From the IMG/VR virus record IMGVR_UViG_2721755676_000004: a stretch of DNA of 54,213 bases. One strand, 5' to 3'. The DNA is from a virus (Duplodnaviria; Heunggongvirae; Uroviricota; Caudoviricetes). Every line of letters begins with the position of its first letter. The first letter of the stretch is position 1. Positions 1 to 54,213 of this stretch are shown piece by piece. The position numbers and the translations under genes were made by a program. The notes beneath the pieces were generated by a model that saw only the letters and a program-made list of their open reading frames with translations, was not told the DNA's origin and searched no databases.

Positions 1-234
1 ATGAAATCAAAAGACACCCTAAAGTGGTTCCCTGCGCAGCTTCCTGAAGTAAGAATTATCCTAGGGGATGCTGTAGTGGAAGTAGCAAAACAGGGAAGAC
101 CTATCAATACCAGAACATTGCTTGATTACATTGAAGGAAACATAAAGAAAAAATCATGGCTGGATAACAAAGAATTATTACAAACAGCGATATCAGTTCT
201 TAAAGACAACCAAAATTTAAATGGTAAAATGTAA
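1..234 (+). CDS. ynaE: YnaE/YdfK-like small prophage protein (77 aa)
   Basis: ORF starting at window position 1; translation matches my memory of the 77-aa YnaE/YdfK proteins that sit next to pin in Rac/Qin prophages; upstream context is outside the window. Confidence 0.55.
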   Translation: MKSKDTLKWFPAQLPEVRIILGDAVVEVAKQGRPINTRTLLDYIEGNIKKKSWLDNKELLQTAISVLKDNQNLNGKM

Positions 235-550
235 TATAATAAACTTACTTTTTTATCATTTTTCCACTTTAACAACATTTTGCTCCACTTTTCCACGACC
301 AAACAACTTGAAATCTGGTTAAAATAACACGCAACACTATTCTTCTTCCTTGAGTCCGCCCGGAACTCGAAAAACAAACCGAGTTAAAGCCATTTTTCAC
401 AAAATCGATTTTGGGTCTCACCAAAATTACGGGGTTGCATACGCATTCGTTTATTTTCGAACGTGTACATACAAATATGCACAAAAATAATCATAATTAT
501 TTTCTGAGATGCATTATGATATGAACACCAATTTCGTATAGAGTCTCACT

Positions 551-1141
551 ATGTCTCAAATTTTTGCTTACTGTCGGATATCAACGCTGGATCAGACCAC
601 CGAAAATCAACGCCGGGAAATCGAAAGTGCAGGTTTTAAAATCAAACCTCAGCAAATAATCGAAGAACACATTAGTGGCTCAGCAGCAACCAGTGAGCGT
701 CCTGGTTTTAACCGGTTGCTTGCTCGCCTGAAATGTGGTGATCAATTGATTGTGACAAAACTGGATCGCCTTGGTTGTAATGCAATGGATATCAGGAAAA
801 CAGTGGAACAACTGACCGAAACAGGTATCAGAGTGCATTGCTTAGCATTGGGGGGCATTGACCTGACCAGTCCAACAGGAAAAATGATGATGCAAGTAAT
901 TTCAGCAGTCGCTGAATTTGAACGAGACCTTTTACTTGAACGCACTCATTCCGGGATAGTAAGAGCCCGCGGCGCAGGGAAACGTTTTGGTCGACCACCT
1001 GTGTTAAATGAAGAACAGAAACAGGTGGTATTCGAACGAATTAAGTCAGGTGTAAGTATAAGTGCCATTGCCCGGGAATTCAAAACCTCGCGGCAAACCA
1101 TTTTAAGAGCCAAAGCAAAACTTCAGACACCTGACATATAA
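551..1141 (+). CDS. pinR: Serine-recombinase DNA invertase (Pin/Gin/Hin family)
   Basis: 196 aa; N-terminal motif [11 protein letters not shown] typical of the resolvase/invertase catalytic serine region; C-terminal HTH; adjacent to tail fibre genes. Confidence 0.9.
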
Positions 1142-1238
1142 AAAATAATCTCGGTGTGAGATGCTTTACGTCTTCCAAGCCCCCTTCCTTGCCGTAAATG
1201 GAAAGATACATCTAATTATAGAATTTATATGTTTTACG

Positions 1239-1814
1239 CTACGGCAGTGCTGGCCATTCAATATCCTGTGAAGTTGACGTATCAACACGGTTCAGCAATA
1301 CCCGATACTTTTTCCATGCTTCCAGCAACGAGATTTCTTCCTCCGTTGCAATTTCCAGATCTGCAGCATCCTGAAGCGGCGCAATATGCTCACTGGCTAC
1401 CTGCATCAGGTTGTTTTTTGTTTCTTCCGCCTCCCGGATCCGGAACAGTTTTTCTGCTTCCGTATCCTTCACCCAGGCTGTGCCGTTCCACTTCTGAAAC
1501 TCCCCTTCCGGCGATAACCAGGTAACATTTTCCGGTAACGGACCGAGTTCAGAAATAAATAACGCGTCGCCGGAAGCCACGTCATAAACCGTTTTACCCC
1601 GATGATCTTCAACGAGATGCCACGATGCCTCATCACTGTTGAAAACAGCCACGAAGCCTGCCGGAATATCTGGCGGTGCAATATCGGTACTGTTTGCTGG
1701 CAGACCTGTATGAGGCGGAATATATGCATCACCTTCACCAATAAATTCATTAGTTCCGGCCAGCAGATTATAAATTGTTATGGTCCGTGGTTGTTCACTC
1801 ATTCTGAATACCAT
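1239..1814 (-). CDS. tfaR: Tail fibre assembly protein Tfa
   Basis: 191 aa; translation resembles lambdoid Tfa proteins; start overlaps stf stop (ATGA); immediately downstream of stf. Confidence 0.85.
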
Positions 1815-4800
1815 TATGCAAGCCTCACAATATAGTTAAATGCGATGTTTTTGACGGTGTTTTCCGCGTTACCAGCAGCGTTAACGGTGATGGTGTGTCC
1901 ATGTGAACCAATCGCAACGGAGTGCGTATGAGCACCAATACCGACAGTATGCGCGTGTGCACCTGCAGATGCTGCTGTGCCGGACAGTGAGTGGCTATGA
2001 TTACCATCTGTACTGGTATTAGCTAACCACCCCGTAGACATACCTACTGAGCCTTGTACACCCCAGGTATTTTGACCTGAGCTTGTATAACCATATTGAT
2101 AAGTATCTTTAAAAACACTGGGGTTAAATCGACGGCCATCTCTATGGCTGTGATTACCAGCTGCATTCGTGCTGCCACTTAAACTATGGGTATGCGCACC
2201 AGTGTTATTCGTGGATTTAGTGCCGTAATCAAACGACGATGTGGTTTTCGTCCCCAAATCCGTACTGGATGCGCTGGCGCTGTGGGTATGCGATTTAATG
2301 CCGTCCTGTTCCTGAGACAATACGGCCCGACCACTGGCAGGTTTGCCCTTAATCGTCCAGCCACGCATATCAGGGATCACGCCTGACGGATAAGCCGCTG
2401 CAAGTTTCGGGTATGCAGATTTGTCAAAAGTCTGCCCCTGCATCAGGGCATAGCCAGACGGAACGGTATCTGATGGCCACGGGATTGGTGCACCGACTGG
2501 ATAAAACTCTGCAGGAGGATGAGCCGAGGTGTAAAGCTGCGCCCACGGCGACCAGTTTGCGTCGGTCGTATCCCGTCGTGAACGAATAAATGCCGGAGCA
2601 TGAGCACCGCTTGTACCACTCCAGCCGATGAGTAACTCACCTTCGCCAACGGCTGTCATCCCTTTCAGGTGAATGATATTTCCATACGCTGTTGGATATC
2701 CGTTGTTATACACCTCGTATAACTCAAGACCTGTTGCCCCCTGCGTATTGTCTGTCAGCGCGGTTACCCGACCTTTTGAAGACAGATTAACTGATGATAC
2801 TGCTGTTCCACCTGACGGTAATGCCCCGATCTCTGATGCCGTTGGCTTATTTCTGGAGTTATAGTCCCTTCGCCAGCCAGGTGAATAATCTGTTCCGTGA
2901 TTAATATAGGTAAACTGGGCGTTAGTTGTTCCGCCACCAGTGGAGGTAGTCGGTGTGGTAATGCGGATCGTCATCGCTGACTTTATCCCCATTACTTCAA
3001 TGACAGCTCCTGCGAGATGAATATTACCGCAGCCAGTATCAGTAATGATTTTATTATTGCCATAAGACCAGGAACCCTTGCACATCCAGTATGGATGGTT
3101 AAATGCTCCCTGAGAATCCAGCCACTCGATAAACTGTGCAGTCGTCCAGTCTCCTGTTGTTGTGCTTACTGACCCACCGAAGGCACGGCTGGCACCAATA
3201 TTTTTCGTAAAGGTGTCTTTGCCAGGGATATCCGCACCGTTCTTATCTTTCTGCAGACGTTTCTCAGCATTGTCATTGGCTGCTTTTACTGCCTTTGGCG
3301 TTGCTGCCAGCGTTTCAGACGTGCTGTTGGTCGCGCTGCTTAGCTGGACTATCCCTTTCTGTGCTGTCGTTGCATCCTGTGCGGTGTATTTCCCGTCAGC
3401 CAGGTCATACGCGGCCTTAACTGCTTTTGGCGTTGCCGCCAGTGACTCGGAAGTGCTGTTGGTCGCACTGCTGAGCTGTACTATCCCCTTTTTCGTCGTG
3501 CTCGCATCCTCAAGCGCCACGGCGGATGCAATATCCTCTGCCCGTTTTGCCGCTGTCTCAGCGCGCGTTGCCGCGGATTCCGCCGTACTTTTGCTCTGTG
3601 CTGCCGCCGTCGCACTGCCAGCTGCCTCTGTCGCCTTCGTGGATGCTGTCGTGGCGCTGCCCTTCGCTGCTGACGCTTGTCTGGTCGCCTCATCTTTTGA
3701 AGCAGACGCAGATGATGCCGATGACGCCGCCGAACTGGCGGACGATGCGGCAGCCGTTTTTGAGGATTCTGCGCTGGTTTCCGACGCTTTCGCGTTCGTC
3801 TCGGATGTCTTCGCTGCGGAAGCAGACCTCGCTGCTGCGCTGGCCTGTTCAGTGGCTTCGCCAGCCTTCGTTGTGGCTGTTGAAGCAGACGATGCGGCAC
3901 TTTCTGCCGATTTTCCGGCGGCGGTGGCACTGGCTGAGGCCTGCCCGGCACTTGTTGACGCGGCACTGGCAGACGACGCAGCCGCTGTTTTTGAGCCTGC
4001 CGCAGCCGAGGCGCTCTGTCCCGCTGCCGTTTCAGAAGACCTGGCGTTTGTCTCAGACGTCTTTGCCGCCTTCGCGGAATTGCCTGCCGCCGTTGCCGAG
4101 GAAGCGGCACTACTGGCGCTTGATGATGCGTTCGTTTCTGATGATTTCGCTGCCTCTTTTGAGGCCGCCGCATCCCGGGCTGAGGTGGCTGCTTCTGACG
4201 CCTTCGTGGTCGCGGCGGATGCAGAAGTGGCTGCTGATTGTTGTGACGCTGCCGCATTCGTTTCTGACGTTTTCGCCGCAGCGGCACTGGTAGCTGCCGC
4301 GCTTTTTGAGGACTCTGCAGCAGCAGCACTTTTCGATGCTTCACTGGCCTTTGTTGATGCCGTTCCTGCGCTGGAAGATGCTGACTGAGCCGACGACGCG
4401 GCCTGTCCGGCTGACGTGCTGGCTGCGCGTGCTGAGCCTGCAGCATCAGTCGCATGGGTTGCCGCCTCACGTGCTGATGTGCCGGCATCGCTGGCTGACT
4501 TCTTCGCGGCTGCCGTGTTCTGTGCCACCGCGGACGCGTTACGCACCACCTCTTCCACCATCAGTTCAAAACGGCGCAGAGCCTCCGGACGGGCATCATC
4601 CTCCGTCATGGCACCGAGAAAATCATTCAGCGTACCGGGTTGAGAATCTTCATACACGGTGATGGTCCCGGCATGTGACGGCGGGAATCCTTCCACCAAC
4701 AGAATAACGCTGTACTGACCGTACTCAACGTCCATGCTGTAACGCCCGGCTTCATCCGGATTTTCTGAGGCCAGCGTGTTTACCACCACCGTGGTACTGT

Positions 4801-4885
4801 TACGTTTTGCTTTCAGCTGGATTGTGCAGTTCTGTACCGGTTTTCCTGTGCCGTCTTTCAGTACACCTGAAATCTTTACTGCCAT
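1814..4885 (-). CDS. stfR: Side tail fibre protein Stf with Ala/Ser-rich repeat region
   Basis: ORF track gives 1814..4891 from a GTG; ATG at 4885 gives N-terminus [12 protein letters not shown] typical of Stf; C-terminal His/Gly/Thr-rich fibre tip; internal tandem repeats. Confidence 0.85.
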
Positions 4886-4894
4886 ATTCACCCC

Positions 4895-4923
4895 ACAAAA
4901 AAGCCCGCCTGAACCGGCGGGCT
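4895..4923 (-). terminator. Rho-independent terminator candidate between lom and stf
   Basis: GC-rich inverted repeat AGCCCGCC...GGCGGGCT followed by a T-run on the minus strand. Confidence 0.5.
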
Positions 4924-4949
4924 GTCATAACACTGTGTTACCTGGCTAA

Positions 4950-5549
4950 TCAGAATTTATAACCAACACCCACGATGAACCCGTCAGTGCGCCAGTCACC
5001 ACTGCCGGAGCCTTCATAAGCGACATCAATGGCCACGGATTCGGTCGGGTTAAACTGCACGCCAGCCCCCCACACCAGAGACGTGTTGCTGTGGCGACCG
5101 TCATCACTTCCGGTCAGCACATCGTGCGTTTTCCCCTTATTGTCAGTTACGCGGATATAATCCCCGGAAAAAGTCGACACACGGCTGTAAGCCACACCCG
5201 CCATCGCATACGCGCTGAACCATTCATTCACGCGTACAGACGGCCCCGCCATCACGCTGAACCAGCGGTTACGCACGGAATCTTCATACCAGCGGGTATC
5301 GCTGTAACGGGTCAGCTGGCGATTCTTGTCTCCTGCATAGCTGAACGACGTCACCATCCCCAGTGTGTCCGTAAACTCATAACGGTATTTCACGTTAATC
5401 CCGTTCAGATCATCACTGCCGGGAACGTTCGTCCGGGCATGAAGATACCCCGCGCTCAGCGTGGACTGATGTTCAGATGCCCATGCAGGCGCACCGGATA
5501 CGGCCAGACAAATGGCTGCGGAAAAAATGGCGGCATAAAGTTTACGCAT
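4950..5549 (-). CDS. lom: Outer membrane beta-barrel protein Lom (Ail/Lom family)
   Basis: 199 aa; signal peptide; alternating amphipathic strands; C-terminal aromatic residue (GYKF); position between J and stf as in lambda. Confidence 0.85.
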   Translation of the reverse strand: MRKLYAAIFSAAICLAVSGAPAWASEHQSTLSAGYLHARTNVPGSDDLNGINVKYRYEFTDTLGMVTSFSYAGDKNRQLTRYSDTRWYEDSVRNRWFSVMAGPSVRVNEWFSAYAMAGVAYSRVSTFSGDYIRVTDNKGKTHDVLTGSDDGRHSNTSLVWGAGVQFNPTESVAIDVAYEGSGSGDWRTDGFIVGVGYKF

Positions 5550-5572
5550 AATTACCTCTCGCTTTTCTGCAA

Positions 5573-5600
5573 TAAAAAAGGCACCATTTCTGGTGCCCTT
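5573..5600 (-). terminator. Rho-independent terminator candidate downstream of J
   Basis: Hairpin GGCACCAGAAATGGTGCC followed by TTTTTTATT on the minus strand. Confidence 0.5.
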
Positions 5601-5618
5601 ATATGGGTTATAACAATT

Positions 5619-8600
5619 TCAACGAATACTGATGCCGGAAGCGGCTTTTTTGGTCACAATCACCGTACAGTCGGTGATATTGCCTGCCCCCTGATTGCCT
5701 TTCTGGAAAATCTTAAACTCCAGAGTGACGCTACCACCACCACTAGGCATATCAATAACTGCACTGTAACTACCGGGAATGGCCCCTTTAGTTTCTCTGG
5801 ATGCGATTAATACGCCGTTTTTGCGAACTTCAAAACCATAACCCGTGTATCGCGTGCCTCCTGGGTTATTTCCGCTCCCCGGATCGTCATACGCTATACC
5901 GTTAAAAATAATGGGCGGAATAATAATCTGGCGGTCAAAGTTATGATCATCGCTGATGGTGACTGTAACCGTACCGTTTGGTGTTTCCGTGTTACCCCAC
6001 GTACCGACTTTTTTCGGGAAGGCTTTTGATACAGCTTTAACGAAATCCCCTCTGACCTGGGTCGCCTCCAGCATGCCCTTAATCGTACAGTTCTGGTTAA
6101 TCGTGACATTGTTGAGCGTTCCTGAGTTCGCATTCACACTACCACTGATATCCGCATTTTTAGCGGTCAGCTTTCCGTCTGATGTCAGGGAAAATACCGG
6201 AGGACTGCCACCGCTGGTAATGGTGGGGGCTGTCAGGCGCTTCAGGAACACGTCGTTCATGAATATCTGGTTGCCCTGCGCCACAAACATCGGCGTTTCA
6301 TTCCCGTTTGCCGGGTCAATAAACGCGATACGGTTAGCGGCAACCAGAAACTGGCTCAGCTTGCCTTCCTCCGTGTCCTCCATGCTGAGGCCAATACCCG
6401 CGACATAATGTTTGCCGTCTTTGGTCTGCTCAATTTTGACGCCCCACATGGCATTCCATTTATCGTTAGCGTCCTTCCACTCTTTCGAAAACTCATCCAG
6501 TCTGCTGGCGTTATCCTCCGTCAGATCAACTTTTTCCAGCAGCTCTTTACCGAGATGGGATTCGGTTATCTTGCCTTTGAAAAAATCCAGGTAACCTTCC
6601 GCATCATCGCTCGCCCGACCGACAGCCTCCACGAATGCCGATGTGCCAACGGTGTTCACACTGCGAACGTAAAAATAATAATCATGGCCCGGTTTGATAT
6701 TGATACTGGCGGCTATCCAGTACAGCGCCGTACCAAGATAGCGGGCTGTGGTTTCAACCTGCCTGATATCGGTAATCCGCTTTTCCGAGAACCAGAACTC
6801 AAACTGTACCGTCGGGTCATAAACAGCAAGATGCGGCGTGGCGGTTATCTGAAAATAGCCCGGCGTCAGCTCAATCCTCGACGGTGCTGCCGGTGCGGCA
6901 ATCCGGAACGATACCGACGCCGGATCACCCTGCTGCCCCCGGGCATTTACCGCCCGGACTGTCAGCCTGTAGTTCCCCAGCGCCAGTTGCGTGAAGCGGT
7001 ATGTGGTTTCCGTCGTCCGGGCCGTGCTGACCAGCCGCTCACTGCCGTCGTCCGCTGTTACGGTCAGACGGAGCAGGAAGCTCACGCCCTTCACCACCTT
7101 CGGTGTGTCCCATCGCGCCAGCACCTGGTATTCCCCACTGTCTGCGGTGACTTCTGCGGTCAGGTGCTGCACCGCTGGCGGCGTGACACCATTCACCGTG
7201 CCGCTCTGGTCGCCGTCAAAGTGCGCCCCGTTATCCACGATGGCTTCTTTTTCCGGTACATGCTGCACGGCGGTGATGGCATACGTGCCGTCGTCGTTCT
7301 CACGGATACTCACGCAGCGGAACAGGCGCTGGCGCAGCGTCGGCAGCTTCAGCCCCCACACGCTGTATTCAGCAACGCCGTCAGGAACACGGCTCACTTT
7401 CACCTTCACGCCGTCGGTGACGGACTGAACCTCCACGCTGACCGGATTGCCACTTCCGTCAACCAGGCTTATCAGCGTGGTACCGGAGGATGGCAGCGTG
7501 ATTTCACGGTCGAGCGTCAGCGTCCGGGTCTGGCTGTTTACCGCCAGCACGCGCCCGCCGGTGCTGATACCGGCATAGTCATCATCACAGATTTCAATGA
7601 CATCGCCCGGCACATGGCGAAGCCCTTCGGCACCCACGCTGAAGTCCACGGTCTGCGTTTCCAGCAGTTCTGTTTTAATCAGCCACAGCCCGGCTCGGTG
7701 CGCCTGCCCCCGACTGGTACAGCCAAACGCATCCATCTTCGTGACGTTACGACCGTAACGGGCAATGGCCTGCGAGTCCTCCACAAGCTCTGTTGCCGTC
7801 TCCCAGCCGTTATCCGGGTCAATCCAGTTCACCTCAACGGCATTATGGCGGTCTTTCAGGGCGCTGAAGCTGTAGCGGAACGGCGCGCCATCATCCGGCA
7901 TCACCACATTACTGCGGTTATAGGTCCACACCTTATCCGACGGTCGGTCCTGCACGAACATCAGCGTCTGCCCGTTCCATACCGGCATACAGCGCATCGC
8001 CGAGCAGAAATCACTGAGCACATCCCACGCCTTGCGCTGTGTGGTCAGGTACGCATTACAGGTGATGCGCGGCTCCGTGCCGCCAAAACCGTCCGGCACC
8101 GACTGATCGCAATGCTGGCCGATGACATACAGCGCCCATTTGTCCACATCCGCCGCACCAAGACGTTTCCCCATGCCGTAGCGCGGATGGGTCAGCATAT
8201 CCCACAGACACCAGGCCATGTTGTTGCTGTATGCTGGCTTAAACGTTCCGTCCCAGATACCGCTGTATTGCCGCGTCTGCGGGTTATAGTTCGACGGCAC
8301 CTGCAGAATGCGCCCGCGCAGATGATAATTACGGCTCACCTGCTGGCTGCCGAACTGCTCCGAATCCACCTGCACGCCGACCAGTGCCGTGTTCGGGTAG
8401 CACTGTTTCACATCGATGATTTCGGTGTATGACGACCAGAGCGTTTTGTTCTGCAGCTGGTCTGTGGTGCTGTCCGGCGTCATCCTGCGCATCCGGATAT
8501 TGAACGGGCGCGGCGGCAGGTTACCCACCACCACCGATGCCAGATACTGTGAGGTGGTTTTGCCTTTAATGGTGATGTCTTTTTCCGTCACCCAGCCACC

Positions 8601-9032
8601 GTTACGCTGTATCTGAACCAGCAGGCGGACTTCCGACGGATTCCGGTCCCCCTTTGAGGTGGTTTCCACCAGTGCCTGCACACCGAAGGTAAAGCGCAGA
8701 CGGTCGATGTTTGCCGACGTGATGGTCCGGGTAATCGGCGTGTCGTACTTCACTTCCGTACCCAGCACCGTCTCGGAGCCGGAGGATTCAAATCCCTCCG
8801 GCGGTGTCTGCTCCTGCTCACCTGCCCGGAAAACCACCGTGACACCGGAGATATTGGTATTCCCCTCACTGTCCAGCACCGGCGTACTGTTCAGCAGCAC
8901 ACTTTTTAATCCGTCCACCGGACCTTCAACCGGCCCTTCACTGATGGCGTCTATCACGCTCAGCATCTGGGATGATTTCAGGTTGTCCTTCGCTTCGCGC
9001 GGGGTATGCCCCTTACTGCTGCCTTTACCCAT
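5619..9032 (-). CDS. J: Tail tip / host specificity protein J
   Basis: 1137 aa; N-terminus [20 protein letters not shown] and most of the length match lambda gpJ as I remember it; C-terminal ~150 aa diverge. Confidence 0.9.
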
Positions 9033-44158: not shown

Positions 44159-45235
44159 TTACCCCCTGAAGCCCGGCGGAATTTCGTTATCCGGTTCAGA
44201 AATATGATTCACACAACGCTGGTTGTTCGTGCCGCTTACCGGGAGCAACCAGGGGTTCTCAAAATTCCGGTCCGGTCCAAAAAACGTCGTCGCTCGCTGA
44301 ACAAATTCCGTTCCCGTTTTCCCGGTAGCCGCCAAGTATCTTGCGTAACGCCTCACGCCATCCAGCATGGCCTCTGGTGGCACCCCCTCGCGTAATCTGG
44401 CCTTCCAGGCACTGAAAGCGGATTTCTTCGGGTTTGCCCCAGCACGCAACGGGTACTCCCGCCAGACCTGTTCGAACACATCCGGATAATCCACTCGTCC
44501 CACAGACTGCCCGGTGTTTTCCGGGACTACCCGATCGGCTTCCCGCTGAATGGCGGAATCGGCTTCAGGCTGCTGCAGTTGGTGTGATTGCTCCGCCCTT
44601 GCGGTCATCACCTGCTGCACAGCGCCCGAATCGGCTTTCAGCGCATACGCTGAATCGGCTTCCGGTGTCGTGCCTGCTGGCTGACCAAGATTGACGGTCT
44701 GAACATCCCCTGCCTGGTTCGTGGCGTTTTTTACGCCATGGACCATAGTGTTTTGATCTTCTTGATCTGTATCTTTATCTGTATCTTTATCTGTCGTGAC
44801 TCGTCGTGACATGTGCGTGACATTTCGTGACGCGCCGTGACAATCGCCATTTTGTTCCCGCTTTCTTTCCCTCTCTCGCTGCGCCCTCTTGCGCTCTGCA
44901 GGAGATTTTGCGGTTTGCGAAATATTGCCGTTGTCCTCTTTAAGCACCTGGCGTTTTTCCCATCCAGTGATTAAATCACCATCAAGTACCCGCCCCTGCA
45001 TCGTCTGCAAAATTGAATCAATTACCTCTTCTGTCACGTCGAGCGCACTTGCCAAATCTTCTGTCGTGACATCAATGTGACCTCGCGTGACATTTCGTGA
45101 CGCGCTCACCAGGAGGTGGATATACACTGCCATCACTGTTGCAATTGGCTGTCCTGACACCCTGGCAATTGTTCGCCACTTAGGGTCATTTGGCATGTCA
45201 TGCCATAATCTGAGCCAGGCGTTAGCCATACTCAC
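44159..45235 (-). CDS. Phage replication initiation protein with internal iterons
   Basis: 358 aa; N-terminal winged-helix-like region, basic linker, C-terminal domain; contains two clusters of CGTGAC direct repeats. Confidence 0.65.
   Translation of the reverse strand: MSMANAWLRLWHDMPNDPKWRTIARVSGQPIATVMAVYIHLLVSASRNVTRGHIDVTTEDLASALDVTEEVIDSILQTMQGRVLDGDLITGWEKRQVLKEDNGNISQTAKSPAERKRAQRERERKREQNGDCHGASRNVTHMSRRVTTDKDTDKDTDQEDQNTMVHGVKNATNQAGDVQTVNLGQPAGTTPEADSAYALKADSGAVQQVMTARAEQSHQLQQPEADSAIQREADRVVPENTGQSVGRVDYPDVFEQVWREYPLRAGANPKKSAFSAWKARLREGVPPEAMLDGVRRYARYLAATGKTGTEFVQRATTFFGPDRNFENPWLLPVSGTNNQRCVNHISEPDNEIPPGFRG
44784..44831. repeat. Iteron cluster 1 (5 x CGTGAC at ~10-bp spacing), candidate ori
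   Basis: tgtCGTGACtcgtCGTGACatgtgCGTGACatttCGTGACgcgcCGTGACa; preceded by ATCTTTATCTGT tandem repeats. Confidence 0.6.
45061..45105. repeat. Iteron cluster 2 (CGTGAC repeats)
   Basis: ctgtCGTGACatcaatGTGACctcgCGTGACatttCGTGACgcg. Confidence 0.55.
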
Positions 45236-45300
45236 CTCTTTTGATACCGAATCTTTTTACTCACAAATTGCCGGAAGTGATCCGGTATGAATATTGCGAG

Positions 45301-45726
45301 TCAATGCACAGCCACAATATTTCCTGCAGGGCCACCACGATTCATCTGGTTGAAACCAGCGATCGCCACTGCGACAAAATCATCAGCGTCTCTCACCAGT
45401 CGTTCCCGCGTCTCCACTAGTTCCCGAAAATAGGCTGAGCTATGGCTGCGCATTCGGGCCACCAGCAGAGGTGGCATTGCTTTTTCGATAGCTGGTAACA
45501 ACGCCTGAATTTTTTCAACTGCATCAGGGGTGTCTTTCTCTACCCAGCGGAAAATTTTCTGGGTATTGCGAGCCAGGGCTTCCGGATGGCTGTCGTCATA
45601 CAGTTCTGGGAACGTCATACCCAGTTCAAAATAAGCCCTGGTTATTTCAGCTGCCGGAACTTTTTCACCGTCCGGATGCGCCCAGGCATTCATCGCCATG
45701 CGGATGTGTTCATGCTTGATTTTCAT
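45301..45726 (-). CDS. ydaT: YdaT-like protein
   Basis: 141 aa; position downstream of Cro-like gene as in Rac; assignment from memory of Rac gene order and size. Confidence 0.55.
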   Translation of the reverse strand: MKIKHEHIRMAMNAWAHPDGEKVPAAEITRAYFELGMTFPELYDDSHPEALARNTQKIFRWVEKDTPDAVEKIQALLPAIEKAMPPLLVARMRSHSSAYFRELVETRERLVRDADDFVAVAIAGFNQMNRGGPAGNIVAVH

Positions 45727-45991
45727 GAATCAAGCTCCTAGAAAGTGGTTGTGTTAACATTTTGGTATCTTCCAGCTCGGGCCAAATATTCATCCAATCA
45801 AAAGGCCTTAGTTGCTGACGTGTAACTTCACCATTACTGGCTCGCTCAATAAGGACACATAACGATGCCCCTAACACTTGACCTTTACTCAATGCCTTTC
45901 TTAGATAACCGATGCTGGTACCACACTCGCATGCAAACATACGCTGTTCATCTGACGAAAGAGAATTGAGAAATATTCTTAATTCTTCCAT
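45710..45991 (-). CDS. ydaS: Cro/YdaS-like HTH regulator
   Basis: 93 aa; divergent from repressor gene; HTH region; overlaps ydaT-like start. Confidence 0.6.
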   Translation of the reverse strand: MEELRIFLNSLSSDEQRMFACECGTSIGYLRKALSKGQVLGASLCVLIERASNGEVTRQQLRPFDWMNIWPELEDTKMLTQPLSRSLIHENQA

Positions 45992-46091
45992 AGCTACTCC
46001 TTAGTAAACACAGCAAAGAATACCCATAGGTAAACAAAAGTCAATACCCACAGGTTGTTTACCTTGCAGTAATCGCATCTATTATTTACCT
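45992..46091. promoter_or_regulatory. Divergent promoter/operator region between Cro-like and repressor genes
   Basis: Inverted copies of TACCCATAGGTAAAC / TTTACCTATGG; related palindromes recur at 46553..46592. Confidence 0.5.
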
Positions 46092-46511
46092 ATGGACAAA
46101 TATGAATTTAGACGACAGCAACTCATCAAAATTCGTGATGAGAAATGCGATGGTAAAGCGGTTAACGTGGCCAGAAAGATCGGGCGCGAGCCTTCTTATG
46201 TATCAAGAATGTTGTACCCAGAGGGGAAAAAGGGAAAAAAACGGATCGCTGATGATATGGTGGAGATTATCGAAGAGTCCTTTGGGTTACCCCGGGGATG
46301 GATGGATGGTATCGTTTCATCATCAACGAACACAGCCTCCAGTTATGAAACAAGGGTTCTAACGCCACGACAACGTATTTTTTTAGATCTCTTAGACGAA
46401 CTGCCAGAAAGTGAAGCGGATAACTTATTAAAAACTCTTGAAGAGAAAAAACAGTATTACAATATGATCTACGAAGAAATCCGTAAAAAGAAAGCACAAA
46501 ACGCATCATAG
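46092..46511 (+). CDS. racR: Prophage repressor (RacR-like)
   Basis: 139 aa; HTH; divergently transcribed from Cro-like gene. Confidence 0.65.
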   Translation: MDKYEFRRQQLIKIRDEKCDGKAVNVARKIGREPSYVSRMLYPEGKKGKKRIADDMVEIIEESFGLPRGWMDGIVSSSTNTASSYETRVLTPRQRIFLDLLDELPESEADNLLKTLEEKKQYYNMIYEEIRKKKAQNAS

Positions 46512-46765
46512 CTCACCAAACAACTAGTCACCAGTTAAGACACCGCAAAAAGTTACCCATGGGTATTTACTTTTTAAATACCTATGGGTATCCTTCTTTT
46601 CATACCAACCCACCCCGCCCCACAGAATGCAGGGCAATACTTCGAGTTACCAGGCAGTGGTCAGGGGTTAAGTAGCCAGCCCGAGGCGTAAGAACATGAC
46701 GGCGGGATTCAAATTTTGCAGTGCAGCAGTTAGTTCCGCCACCCGGCGTTAAGGGGAGAGATAAG

Positions 46766-46900
46766 ATGGTGCATTACGAAGTAGTTCAGTATTTGATGGA
46801 TTGTTGCGGTATCACTTACAACCAGGGTGTGCAGGCTTTACGCAGCAACGACTGGGATCTCTGGCAGGCAGAAGTCGCTATACGTAGCAACAAGATGTGA
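46766..46900 (+). CDS. Small protein (44 aa), YdaG-like
   Basis: Not in ORF track; AAGGGGAGAG SD before ATG at 46766; MVHYEVVQYLMDCCGITYNQGVQALRSNDWDLWQAEVAIRSNKM. Confidence 0.4.
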   Translation: MVHYEVVQYLMDCCGITYNQGVQALRSNDWDLWQAEVAIRSNKM

Positions 46901-46910
46901 GATTCGCAAA

Positions 46911-47066
46911 ATGCAAAAAATCGACCTCGGCAACAACGAATCCCTGGTGTGCGGCGTGTTCCCCAACCAGGATGGAACGTTCACTGCCATGACGTATACC
47001 AAAAGCAAAACATTTAAAACCGAAACTGGTGCGCGCCGATGGTTGGAGAAGCACACAGTAAGCTAA
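46911..47066 (+). CDS. Small protein (51 aa), YdaF-like
   Basis: Internal ATG of the 79-aa track ORF gives MQKIDLGNNESLVCGVFPNQDG...; size matches Rac YdaF. Confidence 0.45.
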   Translation: MQKIDLGNNESLVCGVFPNQDGTFTAMTYTKSKTFKTETGARRWLEKHTVS

Positions 47067-47551
47067 CGATTAAAACGTCTACTCCTGCTGTTCCATAATA
47101 ACTTCATAAAATGGGAGTATTTTTCGGTGACGAGATAATAAGAACAGTTTGCGCTATCACTCTGATGTTGAATGATGCCCTTCCGTTCTAATTTTTTCAT
47201 AACCGGGTTACGGCAAGGAGAAGTGATAATAAGATTTCCTGTTTTAAGGAAATCTTTAAATACAGCGATTTCTTTCTCAGATAAACGAAGCAATACTCGT
47301 TGCTCTGGTAGTAATGAATAATGCTTTTGAATATGTGCTCGCAATCTTGAGAAGGAAATGGCGACCACGAAAGAAAAGGCAAAAACGATAATCTGAAAGA
47401 GCCAAGGTATTTCAGTATAAGCATTGAATGCGACAGTAAACTCTTTCGGTATCAGCCAGAGAGTGAGACCAAAAATGATAATCGTATACATAAGTCTTTC
47501 GAGTGGCTCGTTAGCAAAAAGTTTCAACAATGGAGTAAATACATCCAACAT
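47063..47551 (-). CDS. sieB: Superinfection exclusion protein SieB-like
   Basis: 162 aa from internal start MLDVFTPLLK; two TM segments. Confidence 0.65.
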   Translation of the reverse strand: MLDVFTPLLKLFANEPLERLMYTIIIFGLTLWLIPKEFTVAFNAYTEIPWLFQIIVFAFSFVVAISFSRLRAHIQKHYSLLPEQRVLLRLSEKEIAVFKDFLKTGNLIITSPCRNPVMKKLERKGIIQHQSDSANCSYYLVTEKYSHFMKLLWNSRSRRFNR

Positions 47552-47992
47552 ATCAATAACTCTCAACTGTAAGGGTATTGAAATGTTAACACAAGCTCTC
47601 GCTGTAGGGGTATAGCCGAGACCACCGAAGCCCGGAGGTGGTGAAATAAAACCGGGCACAACACGAAGGCGCATTTCCGATATCCATAAAGAGTCGGTCT
47701 TGTCTGTTAAATTTAAATGGTGGGAGTGCGCCTCCGGTTGTAAATAACGACATTGCTGTGTGTAGTCCTGGCGGCATCAGTTTTTTTCTTGAAGTTCGGC
47801 TGATGTCCGCCCTTTTTAAAGTGAATTTTGTGATGCGGTGAATGCGGCTAAGCGCACGTGGCACAGTTAAAAGTCATGTCAGTCCTTATTGGTTTGGGTG
47901 GGAAAGCCGACTGTAATTGTTAACTGGTTGCAGTCACCTGGAGGCACCAGACACCGCATCAACAAAGTTCATTTGTAAAAATGGAGATAATT

Positions 47993-48214
47993 ATGATTGC
48001 ACATCACTTCGGAACTGATGAAATACCACGTCAGTGTGTGACTCCTGGCGATTATGTTCTTCATGAAGGCCGGACATATATTGCCTCGGCAAACAATATT
48101 AAAAAGCGAAAACTATATATTCGTAACCTGACCACAAAAACATTCATTACTGACCGCATGATTAAAGTCTTCCTCGGTCGTGATGGTTTACCTGTAAAGG
48201 CGGAGTCATGGTGA
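47993..48214 (+). CDS. kilR: Killing protein KilR
   Basis: 73 aa from [14 protein letters not shown]; matches Rac KilR from memory. Confidence 0.75.
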
Positions 48215-48385
48215 TGACTAAGAAAATAAAATGTGCTTACCACCTTTGCAAAAAAGACGTTGAAGAAAGCAAAGCTATTGAAAGAATGCTTCACTTCATG
48301 CACGGGATTTTATCAAAAGACGAACCGAGAAAATATTGCAGTGAAGCTTGTGCCGAAAAAGACCAGATGGCACATGAACTTTAAT
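48215..48385 (+). CDS. Small Cys-containing protein (56 aa), YdaE-like
   Basis: Not in ORF track; ATG directly after kilR stop; [56 protein letters not shown]. Confidence 0.5.
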
Positions 48386-48458
48386 TAATTGACTATTCGA
48401 AACTGAATTTATGCCAGAAATGGCAGGTATTCGCTCAACCTTAATTAAGGAGAAAAAC

Positions 48459-48734
48459 ATGATTACCAATTATGAAGCCACTGTTGTAACTACCGATGAC
48501 ATTGTTCACGAGGTGAATCTGGAAGGAAAGCGCATTGGCTACGTAATTAAAACAGAAAATAAAGAAACCCCATTCACTGTGGTTGATATCGATGGTCCAT
48601 CAGGCAACGTAAAAACACTTGATGAAGGTGTCAAAAAAATGTGCCTGGTGCATATCGGAAAGAATCTGCCCGCAGAAAAAAAAGCCGAATTTCTGGCAAC
48701 TCTAATTGCAATGAAATTAAAAGGTGAAATCTGA
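48459..48734 (+). CDS. racC: RacC-like small protein (91 aa)
   Basis: AAGGAGAAAAAC SD before ATG at 48459; position just upstream of recE. Confidence 0.55.
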   Translation: MITNYEATVVTTDDIVHEVNLEGKRIGYVIKTENKETPFTVVDIDGPSGNVKTLDEGVKKMCLVHIGKNLPAEKKAEFLATLIAMKLKGEI

Positions 48735-48835
48735 AAGAAATAGCCTGCGTATGGCGCAGGCTATGAACAGTGTGTATCCGGCAAGATCATTCACTGAACA
48801 AAACGAATTTTAATCTGAGTTGAGGTTAAAAAACA

Positions 48836-51427
48836 ATGAGCACAAAACCACTCTTCCTGTTACGGAAAGCGAAAAAATCATCCGGTGAACCTGACGTCGT
48901 CCTGTGGGCAAGCAACGATTTTGAATCGACCTGTGCCACTCTGGACTACCTGATCGTTAAGTCAGGTAAAAAACTGAGCAGCTATTTTAAAGCTGTTGCC
49001 ACGAATTTTCCTGTCGTTAATGACCTGCCCGCTGAAGGTGAGATCGATTTTACCTGGAGTGAACGCTATCAACTCAGCAAAGACTCCATGACATGGGAAC
49101 TAAAACCGGGAGCAGCACCAGACAACGCTCACTATCAAGGCAATACCAACGTCAACGGCGAAGACATGACTGAGATTGAGGAGAATATGCTACTCCCAAT
49201 TTCTGGCCAGGAACTGCCCATTCGTTGGCTTGCTCAACACGGCAGCGAAAAACCGGTAACGCACGTTTCACGCGACGGACTCCAGGCATTACACATTGCT
49301 CGGGCTGAAGAACTACCGGCTGTTACTGCCCTGGCTGTTTCCCACAAAACCAGCCTGCTCGACCCGCTGGAAATTCGCGAACTCCACAAACTGGTTCGTG
49401 ACACTGACAAAGTTTTCCCTAATCCTGGTAATTCAAACCTGGGACTGATAACTGCTTTTTTCGAAGCATACCTGAACGCTGACTACACCGATCGAGGACT
49501 GCTGACAAAAGAGTGGATGAAGGGTAATCGTGTTTCACACATCACTCGCACGGCTTCCGGTGCTAATGCTGGCGGCGGAAACCTCACCGATCGCGGCGAA
49601 GGTTTCGTACACGATCTGACGTCACTGGCGCGCGACGTAGCCACTGGCGTACTGGCCCGTTCAATGGATCTGGACATCTATAACCTTCATCCGGCACACG
49701 CTAAACGCATTGAGGAAATTATCGCTGAAAATAAACCGCCCTTTTCTGTTTTCCGCGACAAATTCATCACCATGCCTGGCGGGCTGGATTATTCCCGCGC
49801 CATCGTGGTTGCGTCCGTAAAAGAAGCACCAATTGGGATCGAGGTCATCCCCGCGCACGTCACTGAATATCTGAACAAAGTACTGACTGAAACCGATCAT
49901 GCCAACCCTGATCCGGAAATCGTGGATATTGCCTGCGGTCGCTCCTCTGCCCCGATGCCGCAGCGAGTAACAGAAGAAGGAAAACAGGATGATGAAGAAA
50001 AACCGCAACCATCTGGAACAACGGCAGTTGAACAGGGAGAGGCTGAAACAATGGAACCGGACGCAACTGAACATCATCAGGACACGCAGCCGCTGGATGC
50101 TCAGTCACAGGTAAATTCTGTTGATGCGAAATATCAGGAACTGCGGGCAGAACTCCATGAAGCCCGGAAAAACATTCCATCAAAAAATCCTGTCGATGAC
50201 GATAAATTGCTTGCTGCATCACGTGGTGAATTTGTTGACGGAATTAGCGATCCGAAATGGGTAAAGGGGATCCAGACTCGCGATTGTGTGTACCAGAACC
50301 AGCCAGAAACGGAAAAAACCAGCCCAGATATGAATCAACCTGAGCCAGTAGTGCAACAGGAACCGGAAATAGCCTGCAATGCCTGCGGCCAGACTGGCGG
50401 GGATAACTGCCCTGACTGTGGTGCGGTGATGGGCGACGCAACATACCAGGAAACATTCGCTGAAGAGAGTCAGGTTGAAGCTAAGGAAAATGATCCGGAG
50501 GAAATGGAAGGCGCTGAACATCCGCACAATGAGAATGCTGGCAGCGATCCGCATCGCGATTGCAGTGATGAAACTGGCGAAGTCGCAGATCCCGTAATCG
50601 TAGAAGACATAGAGCCAGGTATTTATTACGGAATTTCGAATGAGAATTACCACGCGGGTCCCGGTATCAGTAAGTCTCAGCTCGATGACATTGCTGATAC
50701 TCCGGCACTATATTTGTGGCGTAAAAATGCCCCCGTGGACACCACAAAGACAAAAACGCTCGATTTAGGAACTGCTTTCCACTGCCGGGTACTTGAACCG
50801 GAAGAATTCAGTAACCGCTTTATCGTAGCACCTGAATTTAACCGCCGTACAAACGCCGGAAAAGAAGAAGAGAAAGCGTTTCTGATGGAATGCGCAAGCA
50901 CAGGAAAAACGGTTATCACTGCGGAAGAAGGCCGGAAAATTGAACTCATGTATCAAAGCGTTATGGCTTTGCCGCTGGGGCAATGGCTTGTTGAAAGCGC
51001 CGGACACGCTGAATCATCAATTTACTGGGAAGATCCTGAAACAGGAATTTTGTGTCGGTGCCGTCCGGACAAAATTATCCCTGAATTTCACTGGATCATG
51101 GACGTGAAAACTACGGCGGATATTCAACGATTCAAAACCGCTTATTACGACTACCGCTATCACGTTCAGGATGCATTCTACAGTGACGGTTATGAAGCAC
51201 AGTTTGGAGTGCAGCCAACTTTCGTTTTTCTGGTTGCCAGCACAACTATTGAATGCGGACGTTATCCGGTTGAAATTTTCATGATGGGCGAAGAAGCAAA
51301 ACTGGCAGGTCAACAGGAATATCACCGCAATCTGCGAACCCTGTCTGACTGCCTGAATACCGATGAATGGCCAGCTATTAAGACATTATCACTGCCCCGC
51401 TGGGCTAAGGAATATGCAAATGACTAA
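48836..51427 (+). CDS. recE: Exodeoxyribonuclease VIII (RecE)
   Basis: 863 aa; long acidic N-terminal region and C-terminal nuclease domain; followed by overlapping recT. Confidence 0.9.
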
Positions 51428-52229
51428 GCAACCACCAATCGCAAAAGCCGATCTGCAAAAAACTCAGGGAAACCGTGCACCAGCAGCAGTTAAAAATAGC
51501 GACGTGATTAGTTTTATTAACCAGCCATCAATGAAAGAGCAACTGGCAGCAGCTCTTCCACGCCATATGACGGCTGAACGTATGATCCGTATCGCCACCA
51601 CAGAAATTCGTAAAGTTCCGGCGTTAGGAAACTGTGACACTATGAGTTTTGTCAGTGCGATCGTACAGTGTTCACAGCTCGGACTTGAGCCAGGTAGCGC
51701 CCTCGGTCATGCATATTTACTGCCTTTTGGTAATAAAAACGAAAAGAGCGGTAAAAAGAACGTTCAGCTAATCATTGGCTATCGCGGCATGATTGATCTG
51801 GCTCGCCGTTCTGGTCAAATCGCCAGCCTGTCAGCCCGTGTTGTCCGTGAAGGTGACGAGTTTAGCTTCGAATTTGGCCTTGATGAAAAGTTAATACACC
51901 GCCCGGGAGAAAACGAAGATGCCCCGGTTACCCACGTCTATGCTGTCGCAAGACTGAAAGACGGAGGTACTCAGTTTGAAGTTATGACGCGCAAACAGAT
52001 TGAGCTGGTGCGCAGCCTGAGTAAAGCTGGTAATAACGGGCCGTGGGTAACTCACTGGGAAGAAATGGCAAAGAAAACGGCTATTCGTCGCCTGTTCAAA
52101 TATCTGCCCGTATCAATTGAGATCCAGCGTGCAGTATCAATGGATGAAAAGGAACCACTGACAATCGATCCTGCAGATTCCTCTGTATTAACCGGGGAAT
52201 ACAGTGTAATCGATAATTCAGAGGAATAA
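51420..52229 (+). CDS. recT: Single-strand annealing protein RecT
   Basis: 269 aa from [14 protein letters not shown]; start overlaps recE stop. Confidence 0.9.
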
Positions 52230-52285
52230 TTCAGCCTGGCGGTGTAATGCACCGCCAACTTGAAATATTTTTTATGAGAAAAATT

Positions 52286-52480
52286 ATGAGATATGACAAT
52301 GTTAAACCATGTCCATTTTGTGGTTGTCCATCAGTAACGGTGAAAGCCATTTCAGGATATTACCGAGCGAAGTGTAACGGATGCGAATCCCGAACCGGTT
52401 ATGGTGGAAGTGAAAAAGAAGCACTCGAAAGATGGAATAAACGAACCACTGGAAATAATAATGGAGGTGTTCATGTATAA
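52286..52480 (+). CDS. ralR: RalR (Lar) restriction-alleviation / DNase toxin protein
   Basis: 64 aa from MRYDNVKPCPFCGCPSVTV; Cys4 motif. Confidence 0.7.
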   Translation: MRYDNVKPCPFCGCPSVTVKAISGYYRAKCNGCESRTGYGGSEKEALERWNKRTTGNNNGGVHV

Positions 52481-52682
52481 AATTACCGCCACTATTGAAA
52501 AGGAAGGTGGCACTCCTACTAACTGGACAAGATATTCAAAATCTAAACTAACGAAATCAGAATGCGAAAAAATGCTCTCAGGTAAAAAAGAAGCAGGCGT
52601 TTCCAGAGAGCAGAAAGTAAAACTGATAAATTTTAATTGCGAGAAACTTCAGTCCTCGAGAATTGCATTGTATTCAAATTAA
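52473..52682 (+). CDS. Small protein (69 aa), YdaC-like
   Basis: GGAGGTG SD before ATG at 52473; overlaps ralR end. Confidence 0.5.
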   Translation: MYKITATIEKEGGTPTNWTRYSKSKLTKSECEKMLSGKKEAGVSREQKVKLINFNCEKLQSSRIALYSN

Positions 52683-52760
52683 AACTTCATAGCTGATTAT
52701 TAATAATCAACATCGGGCGTCAATTTCAGTCTAACATTGGCGCCTGCCAGAGGTGATGCG

Positions 52761-52976
52761 ATGGCACAAGTAATCTTTAATGAAGAGTGGATGGTTGAAT
52801 ACGGCCTGATGCTTCGCACTGGTCTGGGGGCCAGACAAATTGAAGCATACCGCCAGAACTGTTGGGTGGAGGGCTTCCACTTCAAACGAGTATCTCCTTT
52901 AGGTAAGCCAGACAGCAAACGAGGGATTATCTGGTACAACTATCCAAAGATAAATCAGTTTATCAAAGACTCATGA
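52761..52976 (+). CDS. xisR: Excisionase
   Basis: 71 aa from [10 protein letters not shown]; AGGTGA SD; immediately upstream of and coupled to integrase. Confidence 0.6.
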
Positions 52977-52977
52977 T

Positions 52978-54213
52978 ATGTCTAAATTACCAACAGGTGT
53001 CGAGATTAGAGGTAGATACATTCGCATCTGGTTCATGTTTCGAGGAAAACGATGTCGGGAAACATTAAAAGGCTGGGAGATTACAAACAGTAATATTAAA
53101 AAGGCCGGAAATTTAAGATCGCTGATAGTTCATGAAATAAACTCCGGTGAATTTGAGTATTTAAGACGTTTTCCCCAGTCCAGCACTGGGGCAAAAATGG
53201 TGACAACGAGAGTCATAAAAACGTTCGGAGAGCTTTGTGATATCTGGACAAAAATTAAAGAGACAGAGTTAACAACAAACACAATGAAGAAAACGAAATC
53301 ACAATTAAAAACACTCAGAATAATAATTTGTGAAAGTACCCCGATATCACATATTCGTTATAGCGATATCTTAAACTACCGGAATGAACTGCTGCATGGA
53401 GAAACGCTTTACCTGGATAATCCAAGATCCAACAAAAGAGGAAGAACCGTGCGCACAGTTGATAACTATATCGCCCTGCTCTGTTCGCTGTTGCGTTTTG
53501 CGTATCAGTCGGGATTTATATCAACTAAACCATTTGAAGGAGTAAAAAAATTACAGCGAAACAGAATAAAGCCTGATCCGTTATCTAAAACAGAATTCAA
53601 TGCATTAATGGAAAGTGAAAAAGGACAGAGCCAGAACTTGTGGAAATTTGCCGTTTACTCAGGACTTCGTCACGGGGAACTGGCAGCTCTGGCGTGGGAG
53701 GATGTGGATCTCGAAAAGGGAATAGTGAATGTCAGAAGAAACCTGACGATACTTGATATGTTCGGTCCCCCAAAAACAAATGCCGGGATCCGAACAGTAA
53801 CACTACTGCAGCCTGCTCTTGAAGCACTGAAGGAGCAATACAAACTGACCGGGCATCATCGCAAAAGCGAAATCACCTTTTATCATCGGGAGTACGGCAG
53901 AACCGAAAAGCAAAAACTGCATTTTGTTTTCATGCCCAGGGTGTGTAACGGAAAACAAAAACCTTATTACTCGGTAAGCAGTTTGGGGGCAAGGTGGAAT
54001 GCAGCAGTAAAACGTGCTGGTATTCGCCGCCGTAATCCGTACCATACGCGGCATACTTTTGCCTGCTGGCTGTTGACGGCAGGAGCGAACCCGGCATTTA
54101 TAGCCAGCCAAATGGGGCATGAAACTGCGCAGATGGTGTATGAAATTTACGGTATGTGGATTGATGACATGAACGACGAACAGATAGCCATGTTGAATGC
54201 GCGGTTATCGTAG
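52978..54213 (+). CDS. intR: Tyrosine integrase
   Basis: 411 aa; C-terminal catalytic motifs (HTRHTF...VYEIYG) of the tyrosine recombinase family. Confidence 0.9.
   Translation: MSKLPTGVEIRGRYIRIWFMFRGKRCRETLKGWEITNSNIKKAGNLRSLIVHEINSGEFEYLRRFPQSSTGAKMVTTRVIKTFGELCDIWTKIKETELTTNTMKKTKSQLKTLRIIICESTPISHIRYSDILNYRNELLHGETLYLDNPRSNKRGRTVRTVDNYIALLCSLLRFAYQSGFISTKPFEGVKKLQRNRIKPDPLSKTEFNALMESEKGQSQNLWKFAVYSGLRHGELAALAWEDVDLEKGIVNVRRNLTILDMFGPPKTNAGIRTVTLLQPALEALKEQYKLTGHHRKSEITFYHREYGRTEKQKLHFVFMPRVCNGKQKPYYSVSSLGARWNAAVKRAGIRRRNPYHTRHTFACWLLTAGANPAFIASQMGHETAQMVYEIYGMWIDDMNDEQIAMLNARLS

Follow-up and report, generated by a model that had tools for sequence, protein, structure and literature searches.

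The 54,213-nucleotide stretch of DNA analyzed here (IMG/VR virus record IMGVR_UViG_2721755676_000004; the whole stretch is called the window below) very probably represents, without the attachment (att) sites, the body of a full-length temperate siphovirus of the lambdoid Rac family that is integrated at ttcA in Escherichia coli and disabled by the insertion sequence (IS) IS2. The Rac prophage of E. coli K-12 would then belong to the same lineage in a decayed state. Rac serves as the textbook case of a "fossil" prophage, and RecET, KilR, RalR, and TrkG come from it. The window is a near-entire Rac-family prophage with all virion genes, in which the lysis enzyme is interrupted. An earlier sequence-only reading of the same DNA had proposed a near-complete Rac-type prophage with a complete packaging, head, and tail module. 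Gene content, gene order, and the colinear K-12 blocks bear out the former, and matches to PHROGs the latter.

The open reading frame (ORF) map, the composition profile, and megablast against 5,426 complete E. coli genomes, the set used for all occurrence counts, showed a single large prophage on a chromosomal background. The window starts at ynaE and ends at the stop codon of intR, and it is a colinear lambdoid prophage throughout. The modules follow the order integrase-excisionase, recombination, immunity, replication, nin, Q, lysis, packaging, head, tail, and fibers, and each is present once (ORF map with PGAP, PHROG, and Pfam). Gene names were taken from the PGAP annotation of two near-identical sibling loci, AH01 (99.94% identity to window 33770-54213) and M8 (NZ_CP010191; 99.74% identity to window 1-29712, with zero indels). 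The virion-gene assignments were all supported by PHROG scans. All genes checked are full length except that of the endolysin, and the window does not have the uninterrupted set of lytic genes of an intact prophage.

The window was aligned by blastn with the Rac locus of the K-12 derivative ER1709 (L003); in K-12, Rac lies at NC_000913 1411899-1434958. The K-12 blocks are strictly colinear with the window at 99.1-99.9% identity, except in the mosaic stf and lom region, where identity is 86-96% (Table 1). The late-region relics of K-12 (rzpR/rzoR, trkG, ynaK, ydaY, ynaA, lomR, stfR, tfaR, pinR, and ynaE) are all found in order, at 86-99.9% identity. This whole-region alignment, which had been put forward as a check on whether the early and late halves derive from unrelated phages, places both halves in the K-12 Rac lineage. 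K-12 Rac differs from the window by an IS5 between the lomR halves and by having neither IS2 nor the cargo block described below.

For two of the deletions behind the defective state of K-12 Rac, both ends can be placed to the base. The first removed 11,560 bp (15475-27034), from inside the gene for chaperone G (ydaY) to inside a ParB-like gene (ynaK), and took with it the tube, connector, head, portal, terminase, and glycosyltransferase genes. Its junction carries a 2-bp TT microhomology. The second, of 8,369 bp (5346-13714), begins within lom and ends within the tape measure gene (ynaA), and its junction is blunt. It took away J, I, K, L, and M as well as about 70% of the tape measure protein, at the C-terminal end. 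K-12 ynaK is the first ~85 codons of the 263-amino-acid ParB-like gene, ydaY is tail chaperone G with its 5' end fused to ynaK sequence, and ynaA is the N-terminal third of the 1077-amino-acid tape measure protein. A recombination hot spot in ynaK was considered and rejected, as the breakpoints of K-12 and of a second decayed prophage, PKF8, differ (27035 vs 26940).

The third K-12 deletion has its right-hand end at 29465, where the K-12 Rz gene, minus its first ~11 codons, is joined to ydaW sequence. The unmatched ~17 kb of the window beyond this point (29466-46600) holds the start of Rz, the endolysin, the holin, IS2, the nin/Q region, the cargo, and the replication and immunity genes. Since this stretch has no homology to K-12, the window fixes only the right end of the third deletion, and it would say little about what was removed on the ydaW side. 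A better proxy is ON470595 (vB_EcoS-683R6), in which racR-ydaSTUVW is 98% identical to K-12 and is combined with the same late module. Measured on that record, the third deletion runs from 25111 to 33310 (locus L005), or about 8.2 kb. The stretch lost comprises the rest of ydaW, DUF977, the slot for variable cargo, and the nin region, followed by Q, two tRNA genes, and the genes for holin and endolysin. The proposal that the window can show what K-12 lost therefore stands for the first two deletions, down to the base, and for the third at its right end only. Likewise, the sequence-only reading had K-12 without the lysis cassette; its holin and endolysin are indeed gone along with the first ~11 Rz codons, but most of Rz/Rz1 is kept. 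The base-level coordinates of two deletions can serve annotation and efforts to reconstruct an active Rac, and leave the understanding of the element unchanged.

The immunity and replication module is of a non-K-12 type. Similarity between the 139-amino-acid protein at the repressor position and K-12 RacR is undetectable. The Cro-like protein matches YdaS over 28 residues only, a marginal match under the Pfam cutoff, and the cII-like protein is 33% identical to YdaT. The genes ydaU, ydaV, and ydaW are replaced, and the replisome organizer differs from that of K-12. The window thus does not have the RacR-YdaS-YdaT immunity specificity, and racR and ydaS/T-like genes, which had been listed among its contents, have to be struck off in the first case and read as marginal (YdaS) or distant (YdaT) in the second. 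Differing immunity types within one family are usual for lambdoid phages. The window is a sibling with another immunity and replication cassette and not the progenitor of K-12 Rac. The description "close-to-ancestral" was an overstatement, given an unrelated repressor and ~17 kb non-homologous to K-12 racR-ydaW.

The lysis cassette is of the phage 21/DLP12 type. With phmmer, the uninterrupted M8 endolysin matched PDB 4zpu (RrrD) over its full length with an E-value of 9e-111, 162 of 165 residues being identical in the alignment shown, and it matched PDB 3hde, the phage 21 endolysin, likewise over its full length and with a similar score (E 3.4e-110). The window shares with the phage 21 and DLP12 cassettes an RrrD/R21-type signal-arrest-release (SAR) endolysin followed by Rz/Rz1, and differs from them in the IS2 interruption. 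The holin is putatively of class II (S21 type), going by its PGAP name. The 165-amino-acid endolysin (498 bp) is split at about codon 91 by a 1331-bp IS2 flanked by a 5-bp target duplication, TTTGA (29707-29711 and 31043-31047). The two transposase ORFs (29758-30168 and 30126-31031) overlap on the plus strand and are antisense to the late operon. The element is 97.8-99.85% identical to annotated IS2 copies. Both the phage 21-type lysis cassette and the IS2 in the endolysin had been recognized in the sequence-only reading, and both hold.

The endolysin gene has been hit repeatedly, in independent events. Across Rac-type prophages, insertion sequences lie at five distinct positions within its 498 bp (Table 1), and the four IS2 copies all have the same orientation. 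These hits could reflect selection for lysis-dead Rac prophages rather than target-site preference, or they could mark an insertion hot spot. IS2 together with its lysis-gene flanks was matched in one place in 56 genomes, and the trkG-linked lysis cassette is contiguous in 653. In AH01, an IS2 lies just upstream of the Q-like gene, and in HCP6S3_I1 an IS1 lies inside the trkG-to-holin stretch. PKF8 (NZ_CP156813 728500-763000) carries its own endolysin IS2 and has lost the counterparts of window 4941-18159 and 19601-26939. Its late genes are mostly gone, and only an island with the coat gene is left. PKF8 is an independent case of stepwise decay as in K-12 Rac.

Table 1. Features of the window, segments compared with K-12 Rac, and insertion sites in the endolysin gene, all in window coordinates (aa, amino acids; GC, guanine-cytosine fraction).
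Feature	Position	Strand	Basis or remark
ynaE/ydfK	1-234	+	98.7% protein identity to K-12
pinR	551-1141	+	99.5% protein identity to K-12
tfa	1239-1814	-	97.4% protein identity to K-12
IS009 candidate small RNA, inside tfa coding region	1273-1471	-	Rfam 221 bits
stf, side tail fiber, mosaic	1814-4885	-	76-78% protein identity to K-12
lom, intact	4950-5549	-	
J	5619-9032	-	PHROGs
M, L, K, I	9093-11423	-	PHROGs
Tape measure, 1077 aa	11416-14649	-	PHROGs
Chaperone G, -1 frameshift to GT	15123-15584	-	PHROGs
Tube	15633-16595	-	PHROGs
Connectors Ad1, Hc1, Neck1, tail terminator	16622-18170	-	PHROGs
P22-type major capsid protein	18393-19532	-	PHROGs
Scaffold	19631-20395	-	PHROGs
MuF-like head morphogenesis protein	20500-21612	-	PHROGs
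Portal	21596-23002	-	PHROGs
TerL	23005-24306	-	PHROGs
TerS	24287-25381	-	PHROGs
69-aa ORF	25385-25594	-	
TAGT/GREB1-related GT-A glycosyltransferase, 310 aa	25572-26504	-	Pfam PF20691
ParB-N-domain protein, 263 aa	26497-27288	-	Pfam ParB_N
trkG, low-GC potassium-transporter cargo gene between lysis and packaging genes	27426-28883	-	GC 0.37-0.42
Lysis cassette, phage 21/DLP12 type	29021-31530	-	PGAP names essD, rrrD, rzpD, rzoD
Rz	29021-29485	-	Translated ORF
Rz1, embedded in Rz	29080-29265	-	Translated ORF
SAR endolysin, 3' part	29482-29711	-	
IS2, 1331 bp	29712-31042	+	Junctions vs empty site in M8
SAR endolysin, 5' part	31043-31315	-	
Holin, 71 aa	31315-31530	-	EssD/class II holin by PGAP in near-identical siblings
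IS2 site in endolysin, window	29711		
IS2 site in endolysin, 400660	29639-29644		
IS2 site in endolysin, PKF8	29581-29591		
IS2 site in endolysin, 2018-01-1CC	31242-31247		
IS3 site in endolysin, VTB96816v	29673-29676		
Two tandem TolA C-terminal-domain genes between Q-like gene and holin	32328-32756, 31782-32156	-	Pfam
STnc100-like RNA, downstream of Q-like gene	32865-33053	-	Rfam 85.6 bits
DUF1133 Q-like antiterminator	33801-34343	-	Pfam DUF1133 2.5e-107; Phage_antitermQ marginal
DUF1364	34340-34630	-	PGAP name
DUF1367/NinB-like	34630-35229	-	phrog_319 NinB
Cargo block in two variable slots, ~8 kb of non-phage genes	35598-43695		PGAP names via AH01; NCBIfam
Slot 1: DUF1971/TehB-N-like gene	36043-36381		
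Slot 2: MFS transporter, gamma-glutamylcyclotransferase, LysR regulator, DUF2254 protein, BetT-like BCCT transporter	37105-43355		
Immunity and replication module, non-K-12 type	43696-46511		PHROG and Pfam
DUF977	43696-44118	-	
Replication initiator (replisome organizer)	44159-45229	-	
cII/YdaT-like	45301-45726	-	
Cro/YdaS-like	45710-45991	-	
Repressor-position protein, 139 aa	46092-46511	+	
Early-left block: ydaG, ydaF, sieB (minus strand), kilR, ydaE, racC, recE, recT, ralR, rcbA	46766-52682	+	
RalA small RNA, antisense to ralR-rcbA overlap, mostly within rcbA	52479-52657	-	Rfam 225 bits
xisR	52761-52976	+	100% protein identity to K-12
intR	52978-54213	+	99.5% protein identity to K-12
K-12 ynaE, pinR, tfaR, 3' end of stfR	1-1999		99.1%
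K-12 stfR and both lomR halves, mosaic	2174-5345		86-96%
Absent from K-12	5346-13714		
K-12 ynaA and ydaY	13715-15474		99.94%
Absent from K-12	15475-27034		
K-12 ynaK, trkG, rzpR/rzoR	27035-29465		99.67%
Zero nucleotide match to K-12 racR-ydaW	29466-46600		
K-12 ydaG through intR	46601-54213		99.70%

Synteny with lambdoid phages suggests how the element would act. IntR and XisR would integrate and excise it at a 26-bp core in ttcA. The repressor, with divergent Cro-like and cII-like genes, would set an immunity of a specificity type other than that of K-12 RacR/YdaS/YdaT, and the replisome-organizer protein would start replication. The DUF1133 Q-like antiterminator would then switch on one long minus-strand late operon, predicted to encode a pinholin, the SAR endolysin, the spanins, TrkG, the ParB-like protein and the glycosyltransferase, terminase, a P22-type head, a lambda-type tail tip, and side fibers. 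IS2 removes the muralytic enzyme and, lying antisense in the late transcript, may lower all downstream expression. The loss of the endolysin is read directly from the sequence; we infer the polarity on the downstream late genes. The element should still excise, and perhaps replicate and kill through its holin, but phage release would be unlikely. K-12 Rac would have arisen by at least three internal deletions and the insertion of IS5 in lom, with another immunity and replication cassette.

Several points weigh against this account. The functions given, for the element as for its late-module siblings, are predictions from sequence. The att sites, and hence the integration site, lie outside the window. 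The active Rac-type prophage KingRac (see below) has a lambda-type head module and is uninformative on the module found here. A Q-modified polymerase may pass through IS2, so that polarity on the late genes is putative, and another prophage in the same cell could supply endolysin in trans. Lastly, the central 17 kb is non-homologous to K-12, and a single ancestor simplifies what is a mosaic history.

Some of these points lead to the reading that the prophage still works and is inducible, with IS2 tolerated through another endolysin, through release by the holin and spanins, or through IS2 excision. We give this a small chance. All other phage genes look intact. Cassettes of the rrrD type recur within genomes, an IS-free lysis query having matched a median of 3 places per genome, and Q-type antitermination can override terminators, as is known from lambda biology. 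However, with the endolysin split at about codon 91 of 165, active enzyme is impossible from this copy, and precise excision of IS2 is rare. PKF8, with an endolysin IS2 of its own, has lost most of its late genes, as expected once phage production has stopped.

A late module swapped in from an unrelated phage, and thus not ancestral to K-12 Rac, is very improbable. Lambdoid phages are mosaic, KingRac and Rac-SA53 pair Rac-like early genes with other late modules, and the central 17 kb of the window has no K-12 homologue. This explanation nevertheless fails on the alignment: K-12 retains pieces of precisely this late module (ynaK, ydaY, the T frame, and ynaA), which are 99.7-99.9% identical and unchanged in order and orientation, and the K-12 junctions are simple two-ended deletions relative to the window.

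The preferred reading, a single Rac-family prophage at ttcA, is also supported by the flanks of sibling prophages. The 26-bp att core TTGTTCAGGTTGTATTGTTCTTTCTT is absent from the window, as expected from where the window ends. In near-identical siblings, the core is found 76-101 bp past the intR stop codon and 735-760 bp before the counterpart of window position 1 (ynaE), and ttcA flanks the element; in AH01, ttcA follows intR. From these sibling cores we infer a prophage length of ~55.07 kb, including IS2. The M8 sibling measures ~50.1 kb between its att cores. The objection that ~55 kb is beyond capsid capacity was dropped as weak because the M8 sibling is already at ~50.1 kb. Besides IntR and XisR, the early-left proteins tie the window closely to K-12, with 97.7-100% identity to their counterparts. 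RalR, RcbA, RecT, RacC, YdaE, KilR, and YdaF are 100% identical, RecE is 99.5%, and SieB 99.4%.

The cargo block, at least 80% of which is present in 281 genomes, had been pointed out as an island and counted among the lesions of the prophage. The island is real (~35598-43695), but the second label is unwarranted. The flanks of the cargo (window 36584-36887 and the DUF977 gene, 43696-44118) are common to siblings that bear other genes at this place: hokD and a NACHT protein in M8, AbiH and a hypothetical protein in MARGA_3, an S8 peptidase and an AAA-type protein in 683R6 (ON470595), and an FRG-domain protein or S1 peptidase in further strains. Because the slot varies among siblings, the block probably does not represent a lesion. 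Situated between DUF977 and the nin region, the slot looks like a defense/cargo hot spot and often holds genes of the defense type. A pair of genes within the block, for the BCCT and DUF2254 proteins (window 39935-43464), recurs outside Rac, at ~94% identity, in about 3,000 genomes; one such copy lies within an IS3/IS66-flanked island of O104:H4 C227-11. That the window instead combines two adjacent or nested elements, a Rac remnant with a second prophage or island, can be set aside as scarcely credible: ~55 kb is large for a lambdoid phage and an 8-kb non-phage block and IS2 lie inside, but there is a single integrase, immunity, replication, lysis, and virion set in canonical lambdoid order, the annotated genes of the cargo block, which sits in a slot variable among siblings, include no recombinase, and M8 already spans ~50.1 kb between att cores.

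The full-size Rac-type prophage is common, not rare, and the window is an ordinary and well-represented member of its family. At least 80% of window 1-25000 was found in one place in 508 of the 5,426 complete genomes, and at least 80% of window 29214-54213 in 244. ON470595 (a predicted phage from a clinical isolate) and M8 carry the same late module at 99.3-99.7% identity, at the same ttcA-adjoining position, with trkG and the ParB-like and glycosyltransferase genes. Unlike the window, both have K-12-type ydaT/U/V/W replication genes and an intact endolysin, and 683R6 also has racR. The annotation of M8 shows its late genes as intact. Downstream of Q, 683R6 has two tRNA genes, whereas ARAGORN found zero tRNA genes in the window.

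The literature already contains full-sized prophages with Rac-like int and early genes, but their late modules are different. KingRac (Frazao et al. 2019, PMC6731689) resides at ttcA, is inducible, forms particles, lysogenizes, and replaces K-12 Rac in the mouse gut; it differs from the window in its lambda-type head module, 1929-nucleotide terminase gene, and sppA-type protease. Sp10/CP-933R of O157:H7 (PMC4632033) is a full-sized Rac-like prophage at ttcA, of which only the leftmost ~8 kb was reported to match K-12. Rac-SA53 (KU052037; LT-II prophages, Jobling 2016, cited in PMC5917428) is full-sized and Rac-like, and shares only 4% of the late-module query (window 11000-27300). The late module of the window is the one from which K-12 Rac descends, with KingRac, Rac-SA53, and Sp10/CP-933R carrying others, which is a modest refinement.

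Among KingRac, Rac-SA53, and the deposited "phage" records compared, there was no evidence of virion production by this late module. The vB_EcoS-xxxRx records come from a preprint whose phages were located within clinical-isolate genomes, and about 14 kb of ON470595 is host DNA; for these reasons, the records were taken to be predicted prophages and not virion sequences. SPF_0923 (ON032529, deposited as "Salmonella phage SPF_0923, complete genome") contains the late half of a Rac-type prophage, with 99.7% identity over window 11000-27300, beyond which come sitABCD and then the host genes uspF, ompN, and ydbK. Either the record is a mislabeled contig, or the DNA was packaged in situ, starting in the prophage and continuing into the adjacent chromosome. 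At the right end of this record, sitABCD takes the place of pinR-ynaE. The most similar capsid among the sampled conventionally named phage records is that of Escherichia phage HK639 (NC_016158), with 74.7% amino acid identity over 99% of its length. The likeness of HK639 is at the protein level only, and among the nucleotide matches listed there was none to the late module.

Of more interest than the prophage itself are two leads, the repeated knockouts of the endolysin by insertion sequences and a conserved gene pair beside the terminase. The pair encodes a ParB-like protein and a glycosyltransferase; the two genes overlap, lie just upstream of TerS, and matched phrog_620 and phrog_842. The glycosyltransferase matches the TAGT family PF20691 with an E-value of 7.6e-35 and 121 bits (cutoff 27.5), and its DDD motif (D102-D104) is invariant across 24 sequences. 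A sequence search against the PDB gave zero matches. The predicted structure, confident for residues 1-150 only, suggests a GT-A fold, with matches to SpsA and SunS/ThuS. Lactobacillus phage phi jlb1, Nocardia phage NTR1, and the archaeal Haloarcula virus HHTV-2 have the same two genes side by side, with 40-47% amino acid identity; in all three the pair lies upstream of the terminase genes, and in two of them directly so.

Recent work indicates that ParB-like proteins activate phage thymidine dioxygenases. No TET/JBP (5mYOX) dioxygenase or C5-methyltransferase was present among the window annotations (PGAP siblings, PHROG, Pfam, and NCBIfam), for which no dedicated search was made. We tentatively suggest, as a possibility on the doubtful side, that the pair is a self-contained, packaging-linked modification system that operates without a TET/JBP dioxygenase. 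In such a system, phage DNA or the packaging complex would be loaded with the ParB-like protein, which would guide the glycosyltransferase to it and so protect against restriction. If this is true, K-12 Rac is the relic of a DNA-modifying or virion-modifying phage. In M8 and PKF8, PGAP flags ynaK as "incomplete", while the 263-codon ORF is open in the window and the counterpart in ON470595 and SPF_0923 is annotated as a full-length ParB gene. The flag may stem from comparison with the truncated K-12 YnaK. The neighboring TrkG is 100% identical to that of K-12 over 482 amino acids.

In the tail region, the slippery site of the G/GT frameshift, A_AAA_AAG, is intact at 15135-15129, and the -1 (T) frame stays open between 15162 and 14817. 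At 1077 amino acids, the tape measure protein predicts a tail about a quarter longer than that of lambda. A search for a Pin-invertible segment around tfa and stf gave no convincing inverted repeats, and pinR appears to be an orphan, as in K-12. One of the two tandem TolA-domain genes is marked as partial tolA by PGAP in siblings. The TolA C-terminal-domain proteins could serve as decoys for colicins that depend on TolA or for filamentous phages. In the stretch that separates the Q-like gene from the STnc100-like RNA, a terminator-like hairpin (33373-33354) lies downstream of a promoter-like site (33430-33401), an arrangement consistent with a pR'/tR' late-leader region.

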